Shown piece after piece: positions 1-35,199 of a DNA stretch of 35,596 nt. The DNA comes from Lujinxingia vulgaris (GTDB lineage: Bacteria > Myxococcota_A > Bradymonadia > Bradymonadales > Bradymonadaceae). Where the stretch lies: positions 1-35,596 of the forward strand of contig JBEBSM010000001.1 of the NCBI GenBank assembly GCA_040394315.1, given 5' to 3'. Under the pieces are notes generated by a model. The model made no database searches. It was not told where the DNA came from and was given only the letters and a program-made list of their open reading frames with translations. Within the stretch, counting starts at the first letter, position 1; each line of letters opens with the position of its first letter. Both the position numbers and the translations under genes were made by a program.

Positions 1-3000
1 ACGCTTGGTGGCACGAAGTATAAAGTGACGCTTTTGAGCGGGCTGCGTGATCGATTCGGGCAGACGCTGGGCAAAGATATTGAGCTTGATTTTGCGGTAG
101 GTCATGCGGAGCCGTTTTTGGGGGCCGGTGACAAGTCGTTGGTTGTGATCGATCCGGCGGGTAAGCCGACGTATTCGATTTATTCGGTTAATCAAAAAGA
201 GGTTCGCGTTCGGGGTTACAGGGTAACGACTGCGGATTGGTTGGCGTTTGTGCAAGCGAGCGCATGGCATAACAAGGCGTCGATGCCGGGTAAGCAGGTC
301 ATTGATCTGGTTGTAAAGCCAGCGGGTGAGGCGGATCGGTTGACGGAAACGGCGATTGATTTGTCGCCGGCTCTGGATAAAAGCGGTCTGGGTCATGTGA
401 TTTTGGAGATTGAGCCTGTTGAGGAAGATTCGACGAGTCAGTCGCACCGTCGATACAATCGCTGGCCGATGAAAGTGTGGGTTCAGTCGACGAAAATCGG
501 GTTGGATGCGTATCTCGATCCGAGCGGTTTGCGTGCGTGGGCCAGCGAGTTGGAGAGTGGGAAGCCGCTGTCCGGTGTCAGTATTAAAATGGGTGAAACG
601 GCCGCGGTTGCAGCGACGGAAAAGAGCGGTCTGGCAAGTTTTGATGTGAAGAAAGTGAGTGCCGCGCAGGGATATCTGGTGGCCAGTAAGGGCGCCGATA
701 GCGTGTTGTTGCCGGGCAATGAATATGGTTATGGCAATCACGTATCGCCCTGGTATGTGCCGCAAACGGAAGACCATTTACGCTGGTATGTGGTCGATGA
801 TCGGCAGATGTATAAGCCTGGTGAGTCGGTTCGGATCAAGGGTTGGACGCGGTTGATCGAAGGCGGAACGACAGGTGATGTCGGGCTGGCTTCGGGTGCT
901 AAAACGGTTCGTTATGAAGTCATGGAATCGCGTGGCACGAAGTTCGCTGAAGGCAGTGCGCAGGTATCGAAAACGGGCGGGTTTGATTTCAAGTTTGAGA
1001 TTCCTGACGGTGTTAATCTGGGGCATGCGTACGTGAGATTTCAGCTCGAGCCGTCCAGTGTGGTGGGTTCTGATCATCATCATAGTTTTCAGATTCAGGA
1101 GTTTCGCCGGCCGGAGTTTGCGGTTTCGGCAAGCGTTGAGGACGGGCCGCATTTGCTGGGTGAGGATGTTCGGGTTGTTGTGAACGCGGCGTATTATGCG
1201 GGTGGCGCGCTCAGTGAAGCACCAGTGAATTGGATGATTACTTCGCGTGAGGGCAGTTACTCGCCTCCCAATCGTGGCAAGTACGTGTTTGGGAAGTGGC
1301 AGCCATGGTGGGGATTTCGGCACTCTGTGTTTCATGGTTGGGACTCTGGCGATTCGCAGACGATTCAGTATTCGAATAAGACGGATATGGCGGGTGAGGA
1401 CTCGGTATTGATGGGGTTTCGCTCGCTTTCGCAGCCACTTCCGTTGAGTGTGGATATTGTTGCGGGTGTGCAGGATGTGAATCGTCAGACGTGGGAAGCG
1501 AAGACGTCGATGTTGGTTCATGCGGCGGCGGCGTATGTGGGTTTGCGCTCGGATAAGATGTTTGTGGAGCGCGGCAAACCGATTGAGATGCAGGCAATTG
1601 CTACGGATATTGATGGGAAATTGTTGGAGGGCCGCTCGATTGAGATGGTTTCGCATCGCCTGAAGTGGAAGCAGACCCGTGGCGAGTGGGCGGAAGAGGC
1701 GGTTGATGAACAGCGCTGTGAGGTGGAGTCGAAGGCGGAAGAAGTGCTGTGTAAATTTGAGACAAAGGAAGGTGGGACGTACAGGATTCGGGCGACGGTT
1801 GAGGATTCAAACGGTCGAAAAAACCTGACGGAACTTACGCGTTGGGTTTCGGGCGGCGAGCAAAAACCGGTGCGTGGGGTAGAGCTTGAGGAAGTTGTAT
1901 TGATCGCGGATAAGCAAGAATATGCGATTGATGAAGTGGCTGAGATTTTGGTTCAGTCGCCGTTTTATCCGGCCGAGGGTTTTGTGACTTATGGTCGTGA
2001 GGGGATTTTGAAGCAAGAGCGCATCGTGATCGAGAAGCCTGGTTATGTGCTGAAGGTTTCGATGCTTGCAGGTTATTTGCCGAATTTGCATGTGCAGGTG
2101 GATTTGAACGGGCAGGCGGGGCGCGTGGATGCGTCGGGCAAGGTTAGTGAAAAGTTGAAAAAGCGGGTCGCTTTTGCGTCGGGTGCTGTGAATTTGTCGA
2201 TGTCGAAATCGACGCGTACGCTGGCGGTTGAGGTGAAGCCGGGTCAGCCGGCGTCGGCTCCGGGAAGTATGGCGGAGGTCGATGTGGTCGTGCGCGATTA
2301 TGCGGGCAAGGCCGTGGCGGACAGTGAATTGCTGGTGTTTGTGGTCGATGAGGCAGTGCTTGCATTGTCGGGCTACAAGTTGGCGGATCCGATCGAGTTG
2401 TTTTACCAGGATCGGGGGATGTTGGTGAACACGTATCGAAATCGTGGATACGTGTTGTTGAGTGATCCGGATTCGATTGGTCAGGAGGGGGAAACGCCTT
2501 CGGAATCGGAAGAAGTGATGATGAAGGACAGCCTGGGTAGTTCCAGGGGTGGCGGGGGGATGCCGCCCGAGGCACCGTCGCCGATGATGGCGAAGTCTGC
2601 GCCGATGATGGAGAATAAGAAGTCGGGTGCGGATCAGGGTGGTGCCGACGGCGCGATTGCGATGCGTGAGAATTTTGATGCGCTGGCGGCTTTTGAGCCG
2701 ACGATTCGGACGGATAAGGAAGGGCGAGCGAAAATTCAGTTCAAATTGCCGGATAACCTGACGCGTTATCGGGTGATGGCGGTGGCTTTTTCGGGCAAGC
2801 ATGATTTTGGCACGGACGAGTCGTCGATGGTTGTGCGTTTGCCGTTGATGGTTCGTGCGTCGGCGCCAAGGTTCTTGAACTTTGGGGATGTGTTTGAGCT
2901 TCCTGTGGTGGTTCAAAACCAGACGGATAAGGCGATGGAGGTTGAGGTCGCGGTTCGTGGCACGAACGTTACGTTTTTGGAGACGCCGGGTGCGAAGGTT

Positions 3001-4806
3001 ACGGTTGCGGCCAATGACCGGGTTGAAGTTCGGTTTAAGGCAAGGACTGAAAGTGCGGGAATTGCGCGTTTTCAGGTCGGCGTGAGTTCGGGTCTGTTGG
3101 CGGATGCGACGATGTTTGAGTTGCCTGTTTATACGCCGGCGACGACGGAAGCGTTTGCGACGTATGGTGAAATCGACAAATCGAGCACGATTGTGCAGCC
3201 GGTTGCGATGCCAGGCGGTGTGTTTGAGCAGTTTGGCGGGCTTGAGTTGACGACGTCATCGACCGAATTGCAGGCGCTGACGGACGCGTTTATTTCGCTG
3301 CTTAATTATCCGTTTATGTTCGCGGAGCAGATTGCGTCGCGGATGCTGGCGATTGCAGCGTTGCGTGATGTTTTGACGGCGTTTGAGGCGGAAGGTATGC
3401 CGACGGCGGCTGAAATTGCGGTGTCGATGGCAGAAGATCTGGAGCTTTTACAGCGATTGCAAAACTCGGATGGCGGGTTTGGATTCTGGAGTTATGGAGA
3501 AAAATCGTATCCGTTTGTGAGTATTCATGTGTCGCATGGTTTGCGGCGCGCTCAGAAGATGGGCTACGAGATTCCGGCGTCGTTGATGACGCGCTCGGAG
3601 CAGTATCTGGTCAATATTGAGGCGAATATTCCGACGTTTTATGGTCCACGGGCAAAATATGCACTGATGGCTTATGCGCAGTATGTGCGTGCGGTTGGTG
3701 GAAAGCCGGATCTGGCTGGGACGCGTGCGTTGTATGCGAAGGCTGGCTTGAAAGAGCTGACGCTTGAGGCGCAGGGCTGGATATTGGCGGTTCTGGCTAC
3801 GGATCCTGAGTTTGCTGCGGGTCGTGCGGAGATCTTGAAGAGTTTGAATAATCGGGTTGAGGAAACGGCTGCGACGGCTGAGTTTAGAAGCGATTACGGT
3901 GATTCGGGCTGGTATATGCTTTATACATCGCGGCGCTCGGATGGTGTTTTGTTGGATGCCTTGATCGCGGCCAATCCGAAGAGCGATTTGATTCCGAAAC
4001 TTGTGCGCGGATTGCTTGGTCACCGCTCAAAGGGGCAGTGGGGATCGACGCAGGATAACGTGTTTGTTCTGTTGGCGCTGGAGCATTATTTCCGGGTTTA
4101 TGAGAAGGAAGTGCCGAATTTTGTGGCGCGCGCGTGGCTTGGGAAGCAGTTTGTCGGCGAGCATGGGTTTAAGGGTCGGACGACCGAGCGTTTTCACGTG
4201 GATGTGCCGATGGCGTATCTTGCGGAGCAGGATGGTAAAACCGATTTCGCGATTCAAAAAGATGGTAAGGGTCGCATGTATTATCGTCTGGGAATGCGTT
4301 ATGCGCCGAAGAGCTTGATGCTCAAGCCTGCGGATCATGGGTTTGCGGTCGAGCGCTTGTATGAATCGGTGGATGATGCGGGCGATGTGAAGCGGCGCGA
4401 GGATGGCGTTTGGGAAGTGAAAGCCGGTGCTCGCGTGAAGGTTACGTTGACGATGGCAGCGCCTGCGCGTCGTTATCATGTAGCGCTTGTGGATTATTTG
4501 CCGGCCGGGTTTGAGCCGTTGAATTCGGCGCTTGCGACGACTACATTGCCGGCGGATGCAGGCTCTTCGAGTGGTTCGCGGCCAGGATATTGGTGGTGGA
4601 TGGGCACGTGGTACGAGCATCAAAATATGCGTGATGAGCGTGTCGAAGCGTTTTCGTCACTGGTGTGGGGCGGCGTTCAGACCTATACCTATTTTGCGCG
4701 TGCGACGACGCCGGGTGAGTTTATCGCGCCGCCGGCCAAGGCCGAGGAGATGTATCATCCGGAGACCTTTGGTCGGACATCAAGTGAAAAGGTTGTTGTT
4801 AAATAA
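1..4806 (+). CDS. Alpha-2-macroglobulin family protein (YfaS/MagD-like, no thioester), 5' end outside window
   Basis: Frame 1 is open from base 1, with no stop before the GTG at 25, so the N-terminus is cut by the window edge. The product is over 1590 aa with repeated beta-sandwich-like segments and a G/P/M/S-rich bait-like stretch (SSRGGGGMPPEAPSPMMAKSAPMM). The helical TED-like part carries NYPFMFAEQ (nt 3307-3330) where thioester A2Ms have YPYGCxEQ. Confidence 0.88.
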   Translation, partial: TLGGTKYKVTLLSGLRDRFGQTLGKDIELDFAVGHAEPFLGAGDKSLVVIDPAGKPTYSIYSVNQKEVRVRGYRVTTADWLAFVQASAWHNKASMPGKQVIDLVVKPAGEADRLTETAIDLSPALDKSGLGHVILEIEPVEEDSTSQSHRRYNRWPMKVWVQSTKIGLDAYLDPSGLRAWASELESGKPLSGVSIKMGETAAVAATEKSGLASFDVKKVSAAQGYLVASKGADSVLLPGNEYGYGNHVSPWYVPQTEDHLRWYVVDDRQMYKPGESVRIKGWTRLIEGGTTGDVGLASGAKTVRYEVMESRGTKFAEGSAQVSKTGGFDFKFEIPDGVNLGHAYVRFQLEPSSVVGSDHHHSFQIQEFRRPEFAVSASVEDGPHLLGEDVRVVVNAAYYAGGALSEAPVNWMITSREGSYSPPNRGKYVFGKWQPWWGFRHSVFHGWDSGDSQTIQYSNKTDMAGEDSVLMGFRSLSQPLPLSVDIVAGVQDVNRQTWEAKTSMLVHAAAAYVGLRSDKMFVERGKPIEMQAIATDIDGKLLEGRSIEMVSHRLKWKQTRGEWAEEAVDEQRCEVESKAEEVLCKFETKEGGTYRIRATVEDSNGRKNLTELTRWVSGGEQKPVRGVELEEVVLIADKQEYAIDEVAEILVQSPFYPAEGFVTYGREGILKQERIVIEKPGYVLKVSMLAGYLPNLHVQVDLNGQAGRVDASGKVSEKLKKRVAFASGAVNLSMSKSTRTLAVEVKPGQPASAPGSMAEVDVVVRDYAGKAVADSELLVFVVDEAVLALSGYKLADPIELFYQDRGMLVNTYRNRGYVLLSDPDSIGQEGETPSESEEVMMKDSLGSSRGGGGMPPEAPSPMMAKSAPMMENKKSGADQGGADGAIAMRENFDALAAFEPTIRTDKEGRAKIQFKLPDNLTRYRVMAVAFSGKHDFGTDESSMVVRLPLMVRASAPRFLNFGDVFELPVVVQNQTDKAMEVEVAVRGTNVTFLETPGAKVTVAANDRVEVRFKARTESAGIARFQVGVSSGLLADATMFELPVYTPATTEAFATYGEIDKSSTIVQPVAMPGGVFEQFGGLELTTSSTELQALTDAFISLLNYPFMFAEQIASRMLAIAALRDVLTAFEAEGMPTAAEIAVSMAEDLELLQRLQNSDGGFGFWSYGEKSYPFVSIHVSHGLRRAQKMGYEIPASLMTRSEQYLVNIEANIPTFYGPRAKYALMAYAQYVRAVGGKPDLAGTRALYAKAGLKELTLEAQGWILAVLATDPEFAAGRAEILKSLNNRVEETAATAEFRSDYGDSGWYMLYTSRRSDGVLLDALIAANPKSDLIPKLVRGLLGHRSKGQWGSTQDNVFVLLALEHYFRVYEKEVPNFVARAWLGKQFVGEHGFKGRTTERFHVDVPMAYLAEQDGKTDFAIQKDGKGRMYYRLGMRYAPKSLMLKPADHGFAVERLYESVDDAGDVKRREDGVWEVKAGARVKVTLTMAAPARRYHVALVDYLPAGFEPLNSALATTTLPADAGSSSGSRPGYWWWMGTWYEHQNMRDERVEAFSSLVWGGVQTYTYFARATTPGEFIAPPAKAEEMYHPETFGRTSSEKVVVK

Positions 4807-6365: not shown

Positions 6366-7853
6366 ATGAGTGCATATAAAAAGCTTGAAAAACATCGGAT
6401 GAAACTGGGACGTGTTGGCGAGGCGCTTTCGGTATTGCACTGGGATTCATCGACGATGATGCCGGCGGGTGGAAGTCCAGGACGTTCGGAGCAGATTGCG
6501 GCGTTGCGTGGGATTTTTCATGAGCTGAAAACCGAGGCGTGGCAGGGCGATGCGCTGGCGGAAGCGGATGGGGATACGTCTCTGGATGCGTGGCAGCGTG
6601 CGAATCTTGAGGAGCTTAAGCGGGGCTGGCTACATGCGACGGCGGTTCCGGCGGATCTCGTCGAGCGGATTAGTCGTAAAGGGTCAGAGACTGAGATGGT
6701 GTGGAGGACGGCGCGACCGGCGAATGATTTTGCGCGTCTTGAGCCACATTTGCAGGAGGTGCTGGATCTGACGCGTGAGCAGGCATTGATTAAGGCTGAA
6801 GCGCTGGGGTGTTCACCTTATGATGCGCTTTTGGACCAGTATGAACCGGGCGGTTCGTCTGCAAAGATCGATGTGATCTTTGATGATCTGGCGGAGTTTT
6901 TGCCGGGATTTCTGGAGGCGGTACTGGATCGTCAAGCGAGTTTGCCGGCCGCGATTGCGTTGGGTGGACCGTTTCCTGTGGCGTTGCAGCGCGAGCTGGG
7001 TGTGGAGCTGATGAATACGCTCGGGTTTGATTTCAACAAGGGGCGTTTTGATGTCAGTCTGCATCCGTTTTGCGGCGGCGTGCAGGATGATGTGCGGATA
7101 ACGACGAATTATTGCGAGACTGATTTTCTGCGGAGTTTGATGGGCGTTTTACATGAGACCGGGCATGCGCTTTATGAGATGGGCTTGCCGTTGGCGTGGC
7201 GTTATCAGCCGGTGGGGAAAGCTCGTGGAATGAGCATACACGAGAGCCAGTCGCTTTTGGTGGAAATGCAGGCGGGTCGTAGTCCGGAGTTTGTGCGGTA
7301 TCTGGCGCCGTTGCTACGTGAGAAGTTTGGCAAGAGTGGTCCGGCGTGGGAATCGGATAATTTGTATCGGCACGTAACGCAGGTAAAACGTGGACTTATT
7401 CGGGTATCGGCCGATGAGGTTACGTATCCGGCACATGTGATTTTACGCTATCGGCTTGAGAAGGCAATGATCAGTGGTGCGTTGTCGATCAAGGATTTGC
7501 CGGAAGCGTGGCGGGCGGGGATGAAGGAGTTGTTGGGAGTGGATGTGCCTGATGATCGTGACGGGTGCATGCAGGATATTCACTGGATGGACGGATCGTT
7601 TGGTTATTTTCCGACGTATTCACTTGGAGCGATGACGGCGGCACAGCTTTTCCAGAGTGCGGAAGCACACGATAGTGATGTGAAGCCGGGGCTTGAGCGT
7701 GGTGATTTTGGACCGTTGATGCGCTGGATGGGCGAGCATGTACATGCGCGTGCGTCATTGGTATCGACGGATGAGTTATTGAAGGATGCGACCGGCTCGG
7801 AGCTGGATGCGTCGTATTTTAAAGCACATTTAGAGAAGCGATATCTTGGTTAA
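6366..7853 (+). CDS. Carboxypeptidase Taq-like metallopeptidase (family M32)
   Basis: The HETGHALYE zinc motif, IHESQS, DIHW and GYFPTYSLGA motifs and a ~495 aa length are typical of M32 thermostable carboxypeptidase 1. An AAGGA Shine-Dalgarno precedes the ATG. Confidence 0.92.
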   Translation: MSAYKKLEKHRMKLGRVGEALSVLHWDSSTMMPAGGSPGRSEQIAALRGIFHELKTEAWQGDALAEADGDTSLDAWQRANLEELKRGWLHATAVPADLVERISRKGSETEMVWRTARPANDFARLEPHLQEVLDLTREQALIKAEALGCSPYDALLDQYEPGGSSAKIDVIFDDLAEFLPGFLEAVLDRQASLPAAIALGGPFPVALQRELGVELMNTLGFDFNKGRFDVSLHPFCGGVQDDVRITTNYCETDFLRSLMGVLHETGHALYEMGLPLAWRYQPVGKARGMSIHESQSLLVEMQAGRSPEFVRYLAPLLREKFGKSGPAWESDNLYRHVTQVKRGLIRVSADEVTYPAHVILRYRLEKAMISGALSIKDLPEAWRAGMKELLGVDVPDDRDGCMQDIHWMDGSFGYFPTYSLGAMTAAQLFQSAEAHDSDVKPGLERGDFGPLMRWMGEHVHARASLVSTDELLKDATGSELDASYFKAHLEKRYLG

Positions 7854-29749: not shown

Positions 29750-29832
29750 GGAGGAGTGGCCGAGCGGTTGAAGGCACCGGTCTTGAAAACCGGCAAGCGA
29801 GAGCTTCGTGGGTTCGAATCCCACCTCCTCCG
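29750..29832 (+). tRNA. tRNA-Ser (anticodon TGA)
   Basis: Acceptor GGAGGAG/CTCCTCC, D-arm TGGCCGAGCGG, anticodon loop CTTGAAA, long variable arm, T-arm GTGGGTTCGAATCCCAC, discriminator G. No encoded CCA. Confidence 0.93.
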
Positions 29833-29901
29833 TTCCGCAAGTGCGGAGGGACGTAAGACGGTCGAGTTTGGCCGGTGTTTGTAATAACGCGAAAGCGTGT
29901 T

Positions 29902-29988
29902 GGAGAGATGGCCGAGTGGCTGAAGGCGCTCCCCTGCTAAGGGAGTATACGTGTAAACGTATCGAGGGTTCGAATCCCTCTCTCTCCG
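29902..29988 (+). tRNA. tRNA-Ser (anticodon GCT)
   Basis: Acceptor GGAGAGA/TCTCTCC, anticodon stem CTCCC/GGGAG with loop CTGCTAA, long variable arm, T-arm GAGGGTTCGAATCCCTC. Confidence 0.93.
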
Positions 29989-30036
29989 CTGAAATATCGT
30001 TCGCAGTTCTCGAAAGAGGGTGTGGACGAAGCGGTT

Positions 30037-30110
30037 GCACTTGTAGCTCAATTGGATAGAGCAATGGTCTACGGAACCATAGGTTGGAGGTTCGAACCCT
30101 TCCAGGTGCA
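30037..30110 (+). tRNA. tRNA-Arg (anticodon ACG), copy 1
   Basis: Acceptor GCACTTG/CAGGTGC, D-arm TAGCTCAATTGGATAGAGC, anticodon stem ATGGT/ACCAT with loop CTACGGA, T-loop TTCGAAC. Confidence 0.93.
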
Positions 30111-30113
30111 CTT

Positions 30114-30146
30114 GAAACACCCTTTGTTTAAGGGTGTTTCTTTTTT
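30114..30146 (+). terminator. Intrinsic terminator after tRNA-Arg copy 1
   Basis: GAAACACCC-9 nt loop-GGGTGTTTC followed by TTTTTT. Confidence 0.75.
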
Positions 30147-30204
30147 AAGCCCGCACGAGTTGTCAGTATTTGAATGAAAATTGACACACGGCAGGAAATA
30201 GAGC

Positions 30205-30233
30205 TTGACAAAACTAGCGGCACGGCCTACAAG
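30205..30233 (+). promoter_or_regulatory. Putative promoter for tRNA-Arg copy 2 (and possibly tadA)
   Basis: TTGACA (30205-30210), 17 nt spacer, TACAAG (30228-30233), about 44 nt upstream of the tRNA. Confidence 0.35.
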
Positions 30234-30277
30234 CCGTTTCGTTGTTGGCGGCTCGAAATGCAAGCAACACAAAGAAT

Positions 30278-30351
30278 GCACTTGTAGCTCAATTGGATAG
30301 AGCAATGGTCTACGGAACCATAGGTTGGAGGTTCGAACCCTTCCAGGTGCA
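30278..30351 (+). tRNA. tRNA-Arg (anticodon ACG), copy 2, identical to copy 1
   Basis: The same 74-nt sequence as 30037-30110. The flanks diverge within a few nucleotides. Confidence 0.93.
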
Positions 30352-30418
30352 CTTGAGACGGTCTTATTAACAGGCGTTTCTTTTTGAAGTACGTTGTAAC
30401 TACTGAGGCAGTACAGTC

Positions 30419-30934
30419 ATGAAAGGTGATAAAGCTTTCATGGAGCTAGCACTACAAGAAGCACGAGATGCTCAGGCATCGGGTGAAGTTCCTGTAGGTG
30501 CGGTGGTCGTTCACAAAGGCGTGGTCATTGCGACTGGTTCCAATCGCCGCGAAAGTTGGAACGACCCGACAGCCCACGCAGAATTGATAGCTGTGCGACG
30601 CGCAGCAGAACATCTGGGAAGCTGGCGGCTCGACGATTGTACGGTTTTTGTGACGCTTGAACCCTGTCCGATGTGTGCAGGGATGCTGGTCAATTCACGT
30701 GTTCCCCGCGTTGTTTTTGGAGCGCGCGATTCAAAGGCAGGTGCTTTTCGTTCGCTATATGCGATCGGAGACGATCCGCGACTGAATCATCGAATTGATA
30801 TCGTAGAAGGCTGTCTTGGTGCCGCGTGCGGAGAGATACTAACAGATTTTTTTCGTTCGATTCGTGAAGCTCAAAAGGCAAAGCGTGCGAGTGATAAAGA
30901 GCTTCCGGAATCATCGGAAGACGACGTTCTTTGA
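30419..30934 (+). CDS. tadA: tRNA-specific adenosine-34 deaminase
   Basis: The CDA-fold zinc motifs are HAELIAVRRAA and TLEPCPMCAGML, followed by RVPRVVFGARDSKAGA. This is collinear with TadA. Confidence 0.93.
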   Translation: MKGDKAFMELALQEARDAQASGEVPVGAVVVHKGVVIATGSNRRESWNDPTAHAELIAVRRAAEHLGSWRLDDCTVFVTLEPCPMCAGMLVNSRVPRVVFGARDSKAGAFRSLYAIGDDPRLNHRIDIVEGCLGAACGEILTDFFRSIREAQKAKRASDKELPESSEDDVL

Positions 30935-30963
30935 CATAGATACTCCCTGGGCGGGAAAATTAG

Positions 30964-31050
30964 GGAGGGGTGGCCGAGTGGTTGAAGGCGCTTGATTCGA
31001 AATCAAGTGTGCTTGAAAGGGTACCGTGGGTTCGAATCCCACCCCCTCCG
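30964..31050 (+). tRNA. tRNA-Ser (anticodon CGA)
   Basis: Acceptor GGAGGGG/CCCCTCC, anticodon stem CTTGA/TCAAG with loop TTCGAAA, long variable arm, T-arm GTGGGTTCGAATCCCAC. Confidence 0.92.
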
Positions 31051-31088
31051 TTGTACAAAATAGGGAGTAGTATCCAGAGAACGTTTCT

Positions 31089-31176
31089 GGGGAGGTGGCC
31101 GAGTGGTTGAAGGCGCACGCTTGGAAAGCGTGTATACGTTAATCGCGTATCGAGGGTTCGAATCCCTCTCTCTCCG
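31089..31176 (+). tRNA. tRNA-Ser (anticodon GGA)
   Basis: Acceptor GGGGAGG/TCTCTCC (two G-U pairs), anticodon stem CACGC/GCGTG with loop TTGGAAA, long variable arm, T-arm GAGGGTTCGAATCCCTC. Confidence 0.9.
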
Positions 31177-31177
31177 C

Positions 31178-31205
31178 TTGACATTACACCGCAAGGTGTT
31201 AAACA
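31178..31205 (+). promoter_or_regulatory. Putative promoter for the SRP RNA gene
   Basis: TTGACA (31178-31183), 16 nt spacer, TAAACA (31200-31205), about 14 nt before the SRP RNA helix. Confidence 0.3.
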
Positions 31206-31218
31206 AGACTTGAAACAA

Positions 31219-31330
31219 AGCTCAACCCTTGAGCGGTCGGCGCGACTACTGGCCTGGCACCTCGCCAGACCCGGGAGGGAGCAGCGAACCAGGCACAGGG
31301 TGTGCGTCGACCGCTGAGGGGTTGAGTTAG
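31219..31330 (+). ncRNA. ffs: Signal recognition particle RNA (small bacterial 4.5S type)
   Basis: A single long hairpin: 31221-31239 pairs with 31308-31326 with one G-G mismatch. The apical domain IV-like sequence is CGCCAGACCCGGGAGGGAGCAGCGAACCAGGCA, compared with E. coli CCAGGUCAGGUCCGGAAGGAAGCAGCCAAGGCAG. It has a GNRA tetraloop (GGGA) and the GGAGCA motif. Its position after tadA matches the tadA-scr synteny known in Bacillus. Confidence 0.82.
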
Positions 31331-31514: not shown

Positions 31515-32891
31515 ATGCGGATATTGACCAGGTGGGCACTGACTGGGCTGTGGATGCCGGGCTTGTTGAGCATTGCATTGGTATCGGGATGTGGGGCTTC
31601 GCAGTCTGCCGATACCGAGCACGTGGTGGAACAGCAGGAACCGGTTTCGAAGCCAGTGGCGCAACAAGAAAGCGATCGTTTCTTGTTGGTGCTCGCCACA
31701 ACGCGTTTGTACCGGGAGCCGGATGAATCGGCGGCGTATTTGCAGTTGCGCAGTGTTGAACAGGAAGCGGCAGAGCGTGCTGCGCGCATCAAGATTGCGA
31801 TGGAGCGGCGTGAGCGCGATGTAAAAAACGATAAAGTATGGAATGAGCGCGAGAAAAAGCGTGCGGCGCGCGCGCGCAAACGTGCTCGAGGTAAAAAAGC
31901 GCGGGCTGCGGCGCGGACGGCAAGTAATGAGCGGCGCGAAGCCCGTCGGGCAAAACAAATTGCCCGGGACGTGGGCTATTTGCGAAAAGATGCGGAAACC
32001 TACGCGCTGCAAAGTCCGGGGACGCAGGCGATCGTTTTGAAATGGATCGCGGAACATGGCGATTGGATCGAAGTTGAAACGACTTCGACCGAGCAATCGG
32101 GTGCTCATTGCCATGGCCAGGGACATGAGGCGTTGGGACAATTCCGGATGCGGTTTTACGTGCGCCGTGATGATCTGTTGCAGACGCTTCGTGATCGCGT
32201 GACTATTGGGTTGGGCGCTGGCACGTCCATGGAATTGATACCGGGCGTGGTGTTGATGCCGGTTAGCGGTAAGAATCCGCGTTATAAAGTGCTGGTCGAC
32301 GGGTTTGAATTTGTCGTTTCGGCCGGTGATTTTGAGGTCGCGGACAGCTATCGGCCGAATAAGCCTTTTGAAATGCAGACGACCGATACGGTATTTTCTG
32401 ATGAGGCGCTGATCCACAAAAGATTGAAGCTTGATCGCAGAACTCACCTGCCGTTTAATCCTTATTATCGCTTGTATGTGCTGGAAACATCGCGAGCGAG
32501 AAGTACCGTGTATGCAACGACGCAAACGCCGTGTGCGCGGTATGTCGTGAAGGTGCAGAATAAATATCTGACGGCAGCGCCGCCCAATGCGATGCAATTC
32601 GATTTGCGCAGATCGCACGGTCCTCCGGCGAAACCGTATGTGGAGGCCGGTACGGAAGTTTTCTCTCCGGACGGCAAGCTACTGGGTGAAGCCTACGTGG
32701 ATGCTCATCTGGGGGTGCCGATTCGGAGTGTTCAAAATGTCGGTCGCCTGGATGAAAACACGGTTGAACAAACATGTTTTCGTAAAACATTCGGCCTGCG
32801 CCACAAAATCGAGGACGAGCTTACTCGTCAGAATCTGGATTTGTGCGTAAAGCTGGATGATGTGGTAAGACATGAGTTAGAGGTATTTTGA
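31515..32891 (+). CDS. Hypothetical lipoprotein with a highly charged K/R/E-rich segment
   Basis: Lipobox ALVSGC. Residues about 90-165 are ERAARIKIAMERRERDVKNDKVWNEREKKRAARARKRARGKKARAAARTASNERREARRAKQIARD. The C-terminal ~290 aa are globular-looking and unrecognised. Confidence 0.65.
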   Translation: MRILTRWALTGLWMPGLLSIALVSGCGASQSADTEHVVEQQEPVSKPVAQQESDRFLLVLATTRLYREPDESAAYLQLRSVEQEAAERAARIKIAMERRERDVKNDKVWNEREKKRAARARKRARGKKARAAARTASNERREARRAKQIARDVGYLRKDAETYALQSPGTQAIVLKWIAEHGDWIEVETTSTEQSGAHCHGQGHEALGQFRMRFYVRRDDLLQTLRDRVTIGLGAGTSMELIPGVVLMPVSGKNPRYKVLVDGFEFVVSAGDFEVADSYRPNKPFEMQTTDTVFSDEALIHKRLKLDRRTHLPFNPYYRLYVLETSRARSTVYATTQTPCARYVVKVQNKYLTAAPPNAMQFDLRRSHGPPAKPYVEAGTEVFSPDGKLLGEAYVDAHLGVPIRSVQNVGRLDENTVEQTCFRKTFGLRHKIEDELTRQNLDLCVKLDDVVRHELEVF

Positions 32892-32965: not shown

Positions 32966-33466
32966 ATGAAAGCTAAAAGTATTTCGGAAGCGATGCGTCC
33001 TTTGTGGTTGATTGTTCTGGCGCTGGTATTGGTGACGGCTGTGGCGTGCGGCGATGAAGAACCCGACAAACCAGCAGACAATAATCAACAGGATGCGGGG
33101 ACGAAGGTCGATGTGGATGAGGAAGAAGCTCCTCTTGCGCTGATCGGGATCTGGGGCACGGTTGATAATAACTCCGAGATCATTACCAAAGATAAGTGGG
33201 ACACGATGTCGATCATTGAGTTCAACAATGAAGAGCGCTGGTTGATTACCCAGAACCCACCGGGCGATCTGGGTGCGGATAAGTACAATAAAATTTTGTG
33301 GACGCCGATTGTTCGTCAGCAGTTCTATTATTGCATGATCGAAATCGGTCGAAATAAGCTGGAAGAAGTCAAAGAAAGCCAGGTAAAGGCTGATGATAGC
33401 GATCCAACCAAGGGTGGTTGTCCTGCCGGTTCGATTCAGACCTGGTCATTGTTAACGCGCAAGTAA
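32966..33466 (+). CDS. Small acidic-linker lipoprotein, paralog of 33852-34430
   Basis: GGAGAG Shine-Dalgarno. Signal peptide ending TAVAC-GDEE, then an acidic linker. The conserved C-terminal module reads KILWTPIV..FYYC...LEE...DP..GGC......LLTRK. Confidence 0.72.
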   Translation: MKAKSISEAMRPLWLIVLALVLVTAVACGDEEPDKPADNNQQDAGTKVDVDEEEAPLALIGIWGTVDNNSEIITKDKWDTMSIIEFNNEERWLITQNPPGDLGADKYNKILWTPIVRQQFYYCMIEIGRNKLEEVKESQVKADDSDPTKGGCPAGSIQTWSLLTRK

Positions 33467-33513: not shown

Positions 33514-33542
33514 TTGACCTGTTTTTGAATCGGTGCTACTGC
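33514..33542 (+). promoter_or_regulatory. Putative promoter of the riboswitch-led operon
   Basis: TTGACC (33514-33519), 17 nt spacer, TACTGC (33537-33542). The -10 element is weak. Confidence 0.3.
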
Positions 33543-33544
33543 CC

Positions 33545-33700
33545 AGCGCGTGAACGACGGAGCAGAAAGTCGGTACGAGTCCGACGCTGCCCCCGCAACT
33601 GTAATCGGTGATGAATCTGATGCAAACCACTGGCGAAATTTGGCCGGGAAGGAATCAGATGAAGATGACCCGATAGCCAGGATATTGCTTCGTCGTGGAT
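33545..33700 (+). promoter_or_regulatory. Cobalamin (B12) riboswitch-like aptamer
   Basis: Conserved blocks appear in the expected order: GGTACGAGTCCGAC (33572-33585), GCTGCCCCCGCAACTGTAA (33586-33604), CCACTGG (33627-33633) closing a 5-bp hairpin onto CCGGGAAGG (33644-33652), GATGACC (33664-33670), and the B12-box-like AGCCAGGA (33675-33682). Confidence 0.78.
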
Positions 33701-33712
33701 TGAACACCATTG

Positions 33713-33758
33713 CTTCGGGTCGGAGGCAAGTGGGGTTGTTGGCCGGCTGAAGTTTTTT
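33713..33758 (+). terminator. Candidate riboswitch attenuator hairpin with U-tract
   Basis: CTTCGG (33713-33718) pairs with CTGAAG (33747-33752) and CGG (33721-33723) with CCG (33743-33745), followed by TTTTTT (33753-33758). ACCCGA (33668-33673), inside the aptamer 3' part, can alternatively pair with TCGGGT (33715-33720). Confidence 0.45.
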
Positions 33759-33851
33759 GAATGATTGTGTATTCATAAAAGGTAGCCGCCTTTCCTCCCT
33801 GCAGTTATCTCCGATCTGGTTCTTATCAACCTCCCCAGACGGAGTTTTTTT

Positions 33852-34430
33852 ATGCGCTTTACCTTTGAAAACATTGTGGGTCGTCGTTTTCTTCTTGTTT
33901 TGATGACGGCGTTGCTGGCTCTTGGCATGGTTGCGTGTGGCGACGATGATGGCAAGGATTCCAACAACGACAAGACTGATGTTGGCCAGGTCCAGGAAGA
34001 CGCCGGGCAGGACACGGGTGTCAAAACCGACGCGGCTGATGAAGTCGATGCTGCGGACGAGCAAGATACCGAGGACGAAACCGATGCTGCTGACGTTCCA
34101 GAAGAGCTGGAAGTTCTGGGAAGCTGGTCATCGCAATATGGTGACGAGGAAATCACGGCTACGCAGTGGGGCTATAGCCCGCTGGTGAAATTTGATAACG
34201 CCGAGCGCGTCGCTTACACCCGTAGTGCGGATGATGCGGAGTACAATCCGGGCAAATACGGCAAGATTGTGTGGACACCGCTCGTCGACGATTCGTTCTA
34301 TTACTGCACGGTCGAGTATGCACTGGATACGCTGGAAGAAGCCGAAAACAGCACGACGGCCTTCGATGCAACCAATCCGGATGAGTCGGGTTGCGGTGGA
34401 TTTTCGTGGACGAAGTTGACGCGTAAATGA
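33852..34430 (+). CDS. Small acidic-linker lipoprotein, riboswitch-controlled paralog
   Basis: GGAG lies 7 nt before the ATG. Signal peptide ending GMVAC-GDDD, then a long D/E/T-rich linker. The C-terminal module reads KIVWTPLV..FYYC...LEE...NPDESGCGGFSWTKLTRK. Confidence 0.75.
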   Translation: MRFTFENIVGRRFLLVLMTALLALGMVACGDDDGKDSNNDKTDVGQVQEDAGQDTGVKTDAADEVDAADEQDTEDETDAADVPEELEVLGSWSSQYGDEEITATQWGYSPLVKFDNAERVAYTRSADDAEYNPGKYGKIVWTPLVDDSFYYCTVEYALDTLEEAENSTTAFDATNPDESGCGGFSWTKLTRK

Positions 34431-35125
34431 GTCAACTGGGCCATGGAGCCAGTATGAAGAGTTTTGCGAAATATCTTGTTTTGATGGGCACGTTGTTGTT
34501 CGCGTCGGGTTGCGGTGAGGATGCTGCAAACGGACGAGAAGTCGACGAGATTGCAGATCCTTATGCCAGCGAAGTGGTGAGTTTTACGCCTGGCGAAGGT
34601 GCAGGTTTTGGTCAAGATAAGATGCCGGAAGTTGTGCTGGGCGCGCCGCAGGGCAAGGGTACAAACGCTGGATCGTTGTCGGTATTGAGCCTGGGCAAAG
34701 GCGGTGAAATTGTGCTCGGTTTTGGCGATCATGTGATTGTCGATGGGCCGGGCGCAGATTTCGTGGTCTTTGAGAATCCGTTTTGGCCCGGTGGCAAGGC
34801 AGCCGATGTGTATGCAGAGCTTGGTGAAGTTTCGGTGAGTATGGACGGCGTTGCGTGGAAGACATTTCCTTGCTCTACCGAGCCCAGCGAGCCGGGGCGT
34901 TGGCCAGGATGTGCTGGCTGGACTCCGACGCTTGTTTATGATGCGGACGATCTTGTTCCGCTCGATCCGCAATTGAGTGGCGGTGACGCGTTTGATTTGA
35001 AGGACATCGGCGTCGGCGAAATTCGTTTCGTGCGGATTCGTGATGTTTCGAATAACGGCGATACACCGAGCGCTGGTTTTGATCTGGATGCGGTTGGCGG
35101 CGTTCATTTTCGCGGCAAGAACTGA
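34427..35125 (+). CDS. Hypothetical lipoprotein, translationally coupled to the preceding gene
   Basis: ATGA start/stop overlap at 34427-34430; an alternative ATG lies at 34454. Lipobox LFASGC. Conserved-looking blocks are FTPGEGAGFGQ, GADFVVFENPF, VSVSMDG, GCAGWTP, RFVRIRD and GFDLDAV. I cannot name the family. Confidence 0.72.
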   Translation: MSQLGHGASMKSFAKYLVLMGTLLFASGCGEDAANGREVDEIADPYASEVVSFTPGEGAGFGQDKMPEVVLGAPQGKGTNAGSLSVLSLGKGGEIVLGFGDHVIVDGPGADFVVFENPFWPGGKAADVYAELGEVSVSMDGVAWKTFPCSTEPSEPGRWPGCAGWTPTLVYDADDLVPLDPQLSGGDAFDLKDIGVGEIRFVRIRDVSNNGDTPSAGFDLDAVGGVHFRGKN

Positions 35126-35160
35126 CTTCTGCAGGCTGAAAAAGTAGTTGCAATGGAAAG

Positions 35161-35199
35161 GCCCCGCACACGTTTGAAAAAGTGTGCGGGGGCGTTTTT
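35161..35199. terminator. Strong intrinsic terminator at the end of the lipoprotein operon
   Basis: CCCCGCACAC-10 nt loop-GTGTGCGGGG followed by CGTTTTTG. It lies between convergent genes. Confidence 0.8.

Follow-up and report, generated by a model that had tools for sequence, protein, structure and literature searches.

Two small lipoproteins encoded behind a cobalamin riboswitch in Lujinxingia vulgaris (Bradymonadales), named P1 and P2 here, are probably accessory proteins for the scavenging of corrinoids (the vitamin B12 family) at the cell envelope, and their two genes would form a module that is repressed by B12. Their genes lie in a stretch of 35,596 nt (assembly GCA_040394315.1, contig JBEBSM010000001.1, positions 1 to 35,596 of the forward strand), which as a whole is called the window throughout. 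An initial annotation of this DNA had placed a riboswitch-led operon of two uncharacterised lipoproteins at 33852-35199 and had proposed that its products are a new corrinoid-binding or corrinoid-presenting pair. The riboswitch was verified, its aptamer lying upstream of these coordinates, and both lipoproteins were found as described, P1 with an acidic linker and a module containing a pair of Cys, and P2 with the sequence blocks GADFVVFEN, GCAGWTP and GFDLDAV. The functional proposal was largely upheld, and none of the three refuting outcomes named in that annotation came about: the likeness of P2 to the B12-binding protein BtuH and the B12-linked genomic context speak for it. The same likeness puts P2 into a known superfamily, and corrinoid binding is a prediction for either protein. 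The unit has the following parts.

33528..33705, plus strand: cobalamin riboswitch aptamer, RF00174 (Rfam cmscan)
33706..33851, plus strand: candidate expression platform with two hairpins (folding)
33852..34430, plus strand: P1, 192-aa lipoprotein (open reading frame, ORF)
33852-33938, plus strand: signal and lipobox of P1 up to Cys29 (…LLALGMVAC29G)
33939-34106, plus strand: acidic, Asp/Glu-rich linker of P1, about residues 30-85
34107-34427, plus strand: C-terminal beta module of P1, about 105 aa (AlphaFold2 model)
34427..35125, plus strand: P2, 232-aa lipoprotein (ORF; likelier start 34454, giving 223 aa)
34559-35110, plus strand: predicted BtuH-like beta-sandwich domain of P2, about residues 45-228
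35161..35199, plus strand: intrinsic terminator closing the P1-P2 unit (folding versus shuffles)

Profile and structure comparisons indicate that P2 is a truncated, divergent remote homolog of the BtuH B12-binding domain, and not a standard BtuH. Its AlphaFold2 model is a beta-sandwich with a predicted local distance difference test (pLDDT) value of 76 and a core above 90, and the top match of this model among 350,542 PDB chains in a Foldseek search was 8blw_B (E 7e-5). This chain is BtuG1 of Bacteroides thetaiotaomicron, the C-terminal approximately 250 residues of which form a B12-binding BtuH domain (PMC10404256; PMC8941943). An hmmsearch of the PDB with a P2 profile again had 8blw_B as its top match (E 0.12), with residues 436-498, which are part of the C-terminal extension of BtuG1 that is homologous to BtuH. 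The BtuH domain itself has no Pfam match, and an alignment of BtuH domains was generated from a 63-aa BtuG1 fragment, with which only three short fragments were retrieved; these were used as seeds for a representative search, which yielded full BtuH proteins. Comparison of the P2 family with the BtuH domains by hhalign resulted in a probability of 94.8% (E 5e-8), and larger alignments gave 95.4% and 96.1% (E 3.6e-9), the E-values being those of single comparisons. A relaxed hhalign alignment covers P2 residues 47-210 (domain numbering 6-169) and positions 1-246 of the BtuH domain. By these comparisons BtuH B12-binding domains are the only significant relatives of P2 with a known function, and no characterised family unrelated to corrinoids was found at that level.

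The conserved positions of P2 fit this relationship. The BtuH profile matches the structure of BtuH2 (7BIZ), for which chain numbering plus 100 gives the BtuH2 residue numbers, and the hhalign core pairs Asn399, Phe401 and Glu406 of BtuH2 with N117, F119 and E131 of P2. In BtuH2, the nucleotide-loop phosphate of B12 is held by a Na/Ca two-metal site to which Asn399 and Glu406 contribute, and Phe401 is packed against the lower ligand of B12 (PMC8941943; PMC13616437). N117 and F119 are kept in all 108 aligned P2 homologs, as are D190, D206, D219 and D221, and E131 (105/108) and D187 (102/108) are nearly invariant, which is also true for the three sequence blocks mentioned above. D187, D219 and D221 may be counterparts of further metal-site residues of BtuH2. 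The P2 family comprises at least 2,293 proteins (E up to 0.001), which stem mostly from Myxococcota and are annotated as "hypothetical" or "cell surface protein". No Pfam family matches P2 at E values up to 1.

The remaining Foldseek matches of P2 were discoidin, F5/8-C and CBM32 domains. In addition, the best curated families for both proteins in NCBIfam lead to Leptospira. P2 matched the LIC_13355 family lipoproteins (NF033170; 49 bits versus a cutoff of 120, E 4.7e-13, residues 46-199), to which it appears to be related while standing outside the curated family, and P1 matched the LIC13354 family exoproteins (NF047669; E 2e-9, residues 106-184), also below the cutoff (38 versus 130 bits). 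Binding to laminin, plasminogen and endothelial cells was reported for recombinant LIC_13355 (PMC11891782), and no cobalamin riboswitch has been reported upstream of LIC13354/13355 in L. interrogans (PMC3953431). Taken together, these matches would suit the explanation that P2, and also P1, are general surface adhesins or discoidin/CBM32-type carbohydrate binders, and that their control by B12 reflects a switch of lifestyle, e.g., predation on B12 producers. We consider this very unlikely. At the sequence level the relatives of P2 are BtuH domains and not CBM32 domains, and a resemblance to discoidin is to be expected for a BtuH-like fold, because the nearest fold neighbour of BtuH2 is also a CBM32-containing protein (AlyQ; PMC8941943), which with 5xnr is among the Foldseek matches of P2. 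The binding assays with the Leptospira protein were performed with refolded protein and generic host ligands. Furthermore, adhesins would hardly be expected among genes of the btuB, btuF and btuCD types in single riboswitch-led operons, in which P2 was found.

This genomic context was analysed in 80 loci with P2 homologs, sampled as one genome per species. Riboswitches were searched with an iterated nhmmer profile that had been seeded from Rfam-confirmed aptamers, and matches were checked against Rfam at the gathering threshold. A riboswitch was present at most 2.5 kb upstream of the P2 homolog in 46 of the 64 loci that had at least 2.5 kb of upstream sequence, and all nhmmer matches (62/62) were on the strand of the P2 homolog. 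Rfam confirmed the riboswitch in 29 of 33 genome loci, namely 10/11 in a batch picked from the upper part of the list when the riboswitch content of the loci was not yet known, and 11/11 and 8/11 in two batches that were chosen after the nhmmer search, and the unbiased figures are 46/64 and 10/11. A strict regular expression for the B12 box under-counts (20/80 loci). In 24 of the 80 loci a TonB-dependent receptor was encoded within 6 kb of the P2 homolog, and genes of the BtuF type (Peripla_BP_2), the BtuC type (FecCD) and the BtuD type were found near P2 in 7-9 loci. For a receptor adjoining P2 the best PDB match was BtuB1 of B. thetaiotaomicron (2e-13), followed by BtuB of Escherichia coli.

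Several layouts are recurrent. The layout of the window, riboswitch, P1-type gene and P2, is one of them; in L016, L018 and L009 it is extended by a TonB receptor. In a second layout, typical for Myxococcaceae, the riboswitch is followed by a gene for a lipoprotein of about 450 aa and by P2, often with a Rieske protein thereafter, and in a third layout the riboswitch is located directly ahead of P2. P2 also occurs within complete uptake operons, for example in L056, which contains a riboswitch and the genes for a TonB receptor, a propeller-like protein, a BtuF-type protein, P2, a BtuC-type and a BtuD-type protein.

The variety of accessory genes beside P2, i.e., P1 modules, 450-aa lipoproteins and a propeller-like protein, is reminiscent of the varied "lid" lipoproteins of Bacteroides transporters. 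It would thus be conceivable that P1 and P2 are structural partners of a TonB-dependent transporter, acting as a lid, a tether or an assembly factor, and do not bind B12 themselves, and the lack of the BtuH segment with the corrin contacts in P2 (see below) would agree with such a role. Two observations make this improbable. In the window, as far as its long ORFs scanned with Pfam are concerned, and in several other genomes the pair, or P1 alone, stands behind its riboswitch as a separate unit that has no transporter gene as a neighbour, and the residues that are best conserved between P2 and BtuH belong to the ligand and metal site and do not form a surface patch.

The other genes near P2 are diverse. 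The lipoproteins of about 450 aa from Myxococcaceae (cluster 6) are unrelated to BtuG, to P1 and to anything in the PDB. A second type (cluster 24), encoded by ORFs of about 400-460 aa, has faint matches to NHL repeats and reached an hhalign probability of 77% with the BtuG propeller, which is too low for an assignment; it may represent a myxobacterial analogue of BtuG. This lipoprotein adjoins P2 in L023, L035, L045, L056, L068 and L079, where its gene lies between the riboswitch or receptor and P2. A Rieske [2Fe-2S] gene of about 170 aa directly follows the P2 homolog in ten loci (L001, L021, L022, L039, L043, L047, L049, L050, L055 and L072); in L010 it directly follows the P1-type gene instead, P2 being located ahead of the riboswitch. 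In Corallococcus and Myxococcus two or three RF00174 riboswitches occur within about 7 kb (L022, at 284-524, 4237-4463 and 7166-7332; also L049, L050 and L065). One of them precedes a TonB receptor, and each of the others precedes a lipoprotein of about 450 aa of unknown family and then a copy of P2. Short nhmmer matches to the core of the B12 box upstream of P1 or P2 in L093, L100, L111 and L027, which Rfam did not confirm at the gathering threshold, could be false positives or else cobalamin aptamers of a divergent or variant type.

P1 is an uncharacterised partner module. Its signal and lipobox are followed by the acidic linker, and its C-terminal approximately 105 residues are confidently modelled by AlphaFold2 as a small beta module with one helix (pLDDT above 90 at residues 86-192, compared with 52-58 in the N-terminal signal and linker blocks). 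Invariant in the alignment of the P1 family are C152, C181, W106, N116, W141, D172, P176, W186, one Tyr/Phe position and a GCGG turn, and C152 and C181 probably form a disulfide. P1 has no Pfam family at E values up to 1, and its profile has no similarity to that of BtuH, of the BtuG propeller (hhalign 0.1%) or of P2. As stated in the initial annotation, neither P1 nor P2 is a recognisable transporter, biosynthetic enzyme or isozyme. A B12-independent isozyme or a biosynthetic enzyme was rejected as an explanation because both products are exported lipoproteins that lack catalytic families.

In the 80 loci sampled by P2, a P1 module is present in 21, always adjoining P2 and in one to four tandem copies. 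Sampling of metagenomes by P1 revealed a riboswitch upstream in 43 of 53 loci and P2 immediately downstream in 43 of 62 loci. Of 20 metagenome P1 loci checked with Rfam, 17 were confirmed, one of them as RF01482. The recurrence of cobalamin leaders and the proximity of TonB-dependent receptors, both of which had been anticipated for the homologs, are thus found with either protein as the starting point for the leaders, and with P2 for the receptors. Four loci (L086, L099, L100 and L134) contain monocistronic riboswitch-P1 units with unrelated neighbour genes and no P2 nearby; the aptamer of L086 scores as RF01482 (adenosylcobalamin, AdoCbl) and not as RF00174. As riboswitch-P1 units occur alone and P1-based sampling also retrieves upstream riboswitches, P1 is a B12-regulated gene in its own right. 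The gene order varies: in L154 it is riboswitch, P2, P1, and in L010, L144 and L158 it is P2, riboswitch, P1-type gene, so that the riboswitch lies between both genes and directly controls P1.

A further occurrence of the P1 module touches on the nature of the cargo. The metagenomic locus L145 encodes a ZnuA-like (PF01297) lipoprotein of 760 aa (875-3157, plus strand) with very long, His/Asp-rich DHDDH loops, and a P1-type module (…GDWSDEWG…GCGGFSWTLM) is inserted in such a loop; no riboswitch was detected there by nhmmer. It thus seems that the P1 module can also function within proteins for metal uptake.

Cobalamin riboswitches also control cobalt importers. One explanation for the P1-P2 unit would therefore be that the proteins capture cobalt, or another metal, instead of a corrinoid, the acidic tether of P1 and the acidic cluster of P2 binding the ion for a TonB-dependent or ABC importer. 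The most conserved residues of P2 are indeed carboxylates and amides (E116, N117, E131, D187, D190, D206, D219 and D221), the equivalent residues of BtuH2 bind Na/Ca (PMC8941943), long Asp/Glu-rich linkers are found in P1 and its relatives, and the L145 protein keeps metal capture in play. Nevertheless, cobalt capture is unlikely in our view. The transport genes in the neighbourhood are of the BtuB, BtuF (Peripla_BP_2) and BtuC (FecCD) types, whose cargo is corrinoids or chelates and not free ions, and the sole relatives of known function bind B12 itself. In neither conserved core are there His or free Cys ligands that are typical for Co/Zn sites, the two Cys in each protein looking disulfide-paired, and the invariant residues of P1 are mostly Trp, Tyr or Phe, which suits an organic ligand. 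All three alternatives, i.e., cobalt capture, adhesion or lectin activity, and a purely structural role, are less well supported than corrinoid scavenging.

In the leader of the unit, the aptamer scored 75.9 bits with RF00174 (gathering score 31.5, E 3.5e-17) and covers the full model (positions 1-189). Two hairpins are predicted between the aptamer and P1. The first (33712-33752) is followed by U6, and its stability of -17.3 kcal/mol is not distinctive compared to shuffled sequences (z -1.1). The second (33809-33844) has a stability of -15.9 kcal/mol (z -2.75), which was equalled by 1 of 200 shuffles; it pairs the GGAG Shine-Dalgarno motif (33841-33844), and U7 and the P1 start codon come next. 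Either hairpin is a candidate for the expression platform. By analogy, the riboswitch would be an OFF switch, in which cobalamin binding shuts expression, because B12-uptake riboswitches generally behave so.

At the other end of the unit, the strong terminator of the initial annotation was recovered. It has an 11-bp G+C-rich stem, a 10-nt loop (hairpin 35161-35192) and a subsequent U run, and with -28.3 kcal/mol (z -4.1) none of 200 shuffles was equally stable. A simple terminator scanner missed it because of the 10-nt loop. The convergent thrS gene on the minus strand comes after the terminator. The junction between the two genes had been described as translational coupling by an ATGA overlap. 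The overlap exists, the P2 start candidate ATG 34427 overlapping the P1 stop codon, but ATG 34454 is more likely the start of P2. It has a GGAG 5 nt upstream and yields a canonical 19-residue lipoprotein signal, with the lipobox …LLFASGC29G and its Cys29 (numbering from 34427), and in the closest relative (L082) the P2 gene has been called 62 nt downstream of P1. Therefore, coupling of P1 and P2 is regarded as unproven.

From these elements, the following course of events can be proposed. At low intracellular cobalamin the leader would be open, and P1 and P2 would be made; with cobalamin bound, expression would be off. Both proteins would be exported and lipid-anchored in the envelope, as expected from their lipoprotein signals, probably in the outer membrane; a hint to this localisation is that LIC_13355, the relative in Leptospira, was recovered in the outer-membrane fraction (PMC11891782). 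Most likely, P2 would bind a corrinoid via its BtuH-like site, centred on the nucleotide-loop phosphate, and would hand it to a BtuB-type TonB-dependent transporter encoded outside of the window, from which BtuFCD would take over. P1, on its flexible acidic tether, would most likely help to capture the same cargo or to hand it on.

Various points weigh against this proposal. The confident core of the P2-BtuH alignment is short (57-64 columns), and BtuH2 (7BIZ) was neither among the top 50 Foldseek matches of P2 nor retrieved in the PDB profile search, in which the H-domain of BtuG1 was the only one. The placement of the 8blw_B match on the BtuH domain comes from the profile alignment and not from the Foldseek alignment. 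A gap-free manual alignment, starting from the strand IDFIKI of one protein and IRFVRI of the other, puts D219 and D221 of P2 opposite Ser582 and Glu584, and the low-confidence tail of the hhalign alignment differs here; D187 possibly lies opposite Asp522 of BtuH2, which rests on the same manual alignment. P2 lacks the segment of about 90 residues that holds the corrin contacts Tyr475, His476, Tyr510 and Trp511 of BtuH2. It is replaced by a loop that is bounded by the near-invariant Cys149 and Cys162 and has an invariant C-A-G. In addition, Trp577 of BtuH2 is not conserved, Pro214 being present at that position of P2. For these two reasons, a corrinoid pocket of P2 would need to be constructed differently. 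P1 has no homolog of known function: there was no sequence match in the PDB even at E 10 and no significant fold match, the best Foldseek matches (E 0.35) being small barrels of the lipocalin/avidin type. About a quarter of the P2 homologs, e.g., in Sorangium and Chondromyces, have no detectable riboswitch. Lastly, Pfam analysis of P1, P2 and ten other long ORFs of the window, shorter ORFs having been left unscanned, revealed no transporter, TonB-dependent receptor or B12 enzyme family.

Upstream of the riboswitch, the window contains a paralog of P1 and a further lipoprotein gene.

32966..33466, plus strand: P0, 166-aa lipoprotein, P1 paralog with 32% identity (ORF, alignment to the P1 family)
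31515-32891: gene for a 458-aa lipoprotein with a Lys/Arg/Glu-rich stretch (ORF)

P0 can be aligned to the P1 family and has both of its Cys. Neither protein has a Pfam family, and the 458-aa ORF has no homolog among the fetched loci. The close relative L082 has the same gene order. Due to their location upstream of the riboswitch, the two genes are not under its control. They look like an insertion, because in L008 the riboswitch directly follows the RNA of the signal recognition particle (SRP). In the window the small SRP RNA is located at 31229-31321, after a cluster of tRNA genes; the region from 29750 to 31321 contains six tRNA genes, including two identical copies (30037-30110 and 30278-30351), and a 171-aa ORF within the cluster (30419-30934), the counterpart of which in L082 is a gene of the cytidine/deoxycytidylate deaminase family. 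The synteny of tRNAs, SRP RNA and riboswitch also exists in L008.

The known system that is nearest to P2 is BtuH of B. thetaiotaomicron (BT1956/BT1488; the H-domain of BtuG1, BT1490; PDB 7BIZ, 8BLW), which, like P2, is a lipoprotein encoded in cobalamin riboswitch loci with btuB. The two have a homologous beta-sandwich core (hhalign 95-96%) and share the Asn and Glu of the metal/phosphate site. Their N-terminal motifs are similar, (F/Y)A..V..(F/Y).PG in P2 and V.EY.PAPGQF in BtuH, and SLG.GG.I..GF…DF.(V/I)..N is a common core. In contrast, the P2 domain has about 185 aa compared to about 270 aa, the P2 of the window has no PKD or propeller fusion, and P2, a predicted B12 binder, occurs in Myxococcota and other environmental lineages and not in gut Bacteroidota. 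Published BtuH homologs come from gut Bacteroidota and a few Firmicutes (PMC8941943; PMC13616437). In the library searched, no paper connecting BtuH with Myxococcota, Bradymonadales or Leptospira was retrieved, and searches for P1-type or P2-type proteins in B12 uptake by myxobacteria likewise came up empty. Being a distant, truncated member of a described superfamily, P2 is not a wholly new kind of protein.

BtuG, the seven-bladed beta-propeller that forms the lid of BtuB in Bacteroides, is likewise a riboswitch-regulated lipoprotein accessory to a B12 TonB-dependent transporter, and a propeller-like protein is encoded beside P2 in some Myxococcota loci. P1 and P2 themselves are modelled as a small beta module and a beta-sandwich, respectively, and not as propellers. 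BtuJ/DUF4465 proteins (IPR027828) are extracellular or lipoprotein B12 binders with a beta-sandwich of the jelly-roll type and are encoded in riboswitch loci; Myxococcota are among the several phyla that have them (PMC13398666). As neither P1 nor P2 has a Pfam match to DUF4465 at E values up to 1, they belong to another family.

The loci LIC13354 and LIC_13355 have consecutive numbers in L. interrogans and represent the best curated families for P1 and P2, respectively, and both genes are up-regulated in a host-adaptation model (PMC3953431). They differ in that the scores are far below the cutoffs, that the protein has been interpreted as an adhesin, and that no riboswitch has been reported there.

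NEAT-domain arrays for haem capture consist of small ligand-binding modules in tandem on a cell-surface tether and are induced by scarcity of the cofactor. The analogy of P1 to these arrays is functional only and implies no relationship in sequence or fold. On a speculative note, P1 might be an unrecognised corrinoid-binding fold, lined by aromatic residues and present in one to four copies on an acidic tether as a "corrinophore-like" array, which in Myxococcota and other environmental bacteria would form, together with the minimal BtuH-type P2, a relay that supplies BtuB. The Leptospira pair LIC13354/LIC_13355 might then likewise be a B12-acquisition pair. We regard this wider idea as possible, with considerable doubt.

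Surface accessories that capture B12 (BtuG, BtuH, BtuJ and BtuK) have so far been characterised mainly in gut Bacteroides, in addition to DUF4465 proteins from a few other phyla. Remote homology links the large, unannotated P2 family to BtuH, and riboswitches and operon context link it to B12 uptake, which points to an unannotated B12-scavenging accessory system that is common in Myxococcota. P1 is flagged as a second, uncharacterised module under direct riboswitch control. For Leptospira an alternative function is offered for a pair of proteins that have been studied as virulence factors. With about 185 residues, P2 would represent a minimal version of the BtuH fold, which could be used to dissect the requirements for B12 binding, and the idea of a B12 relay on the cell surface may thus be extended to soil and marine predators.

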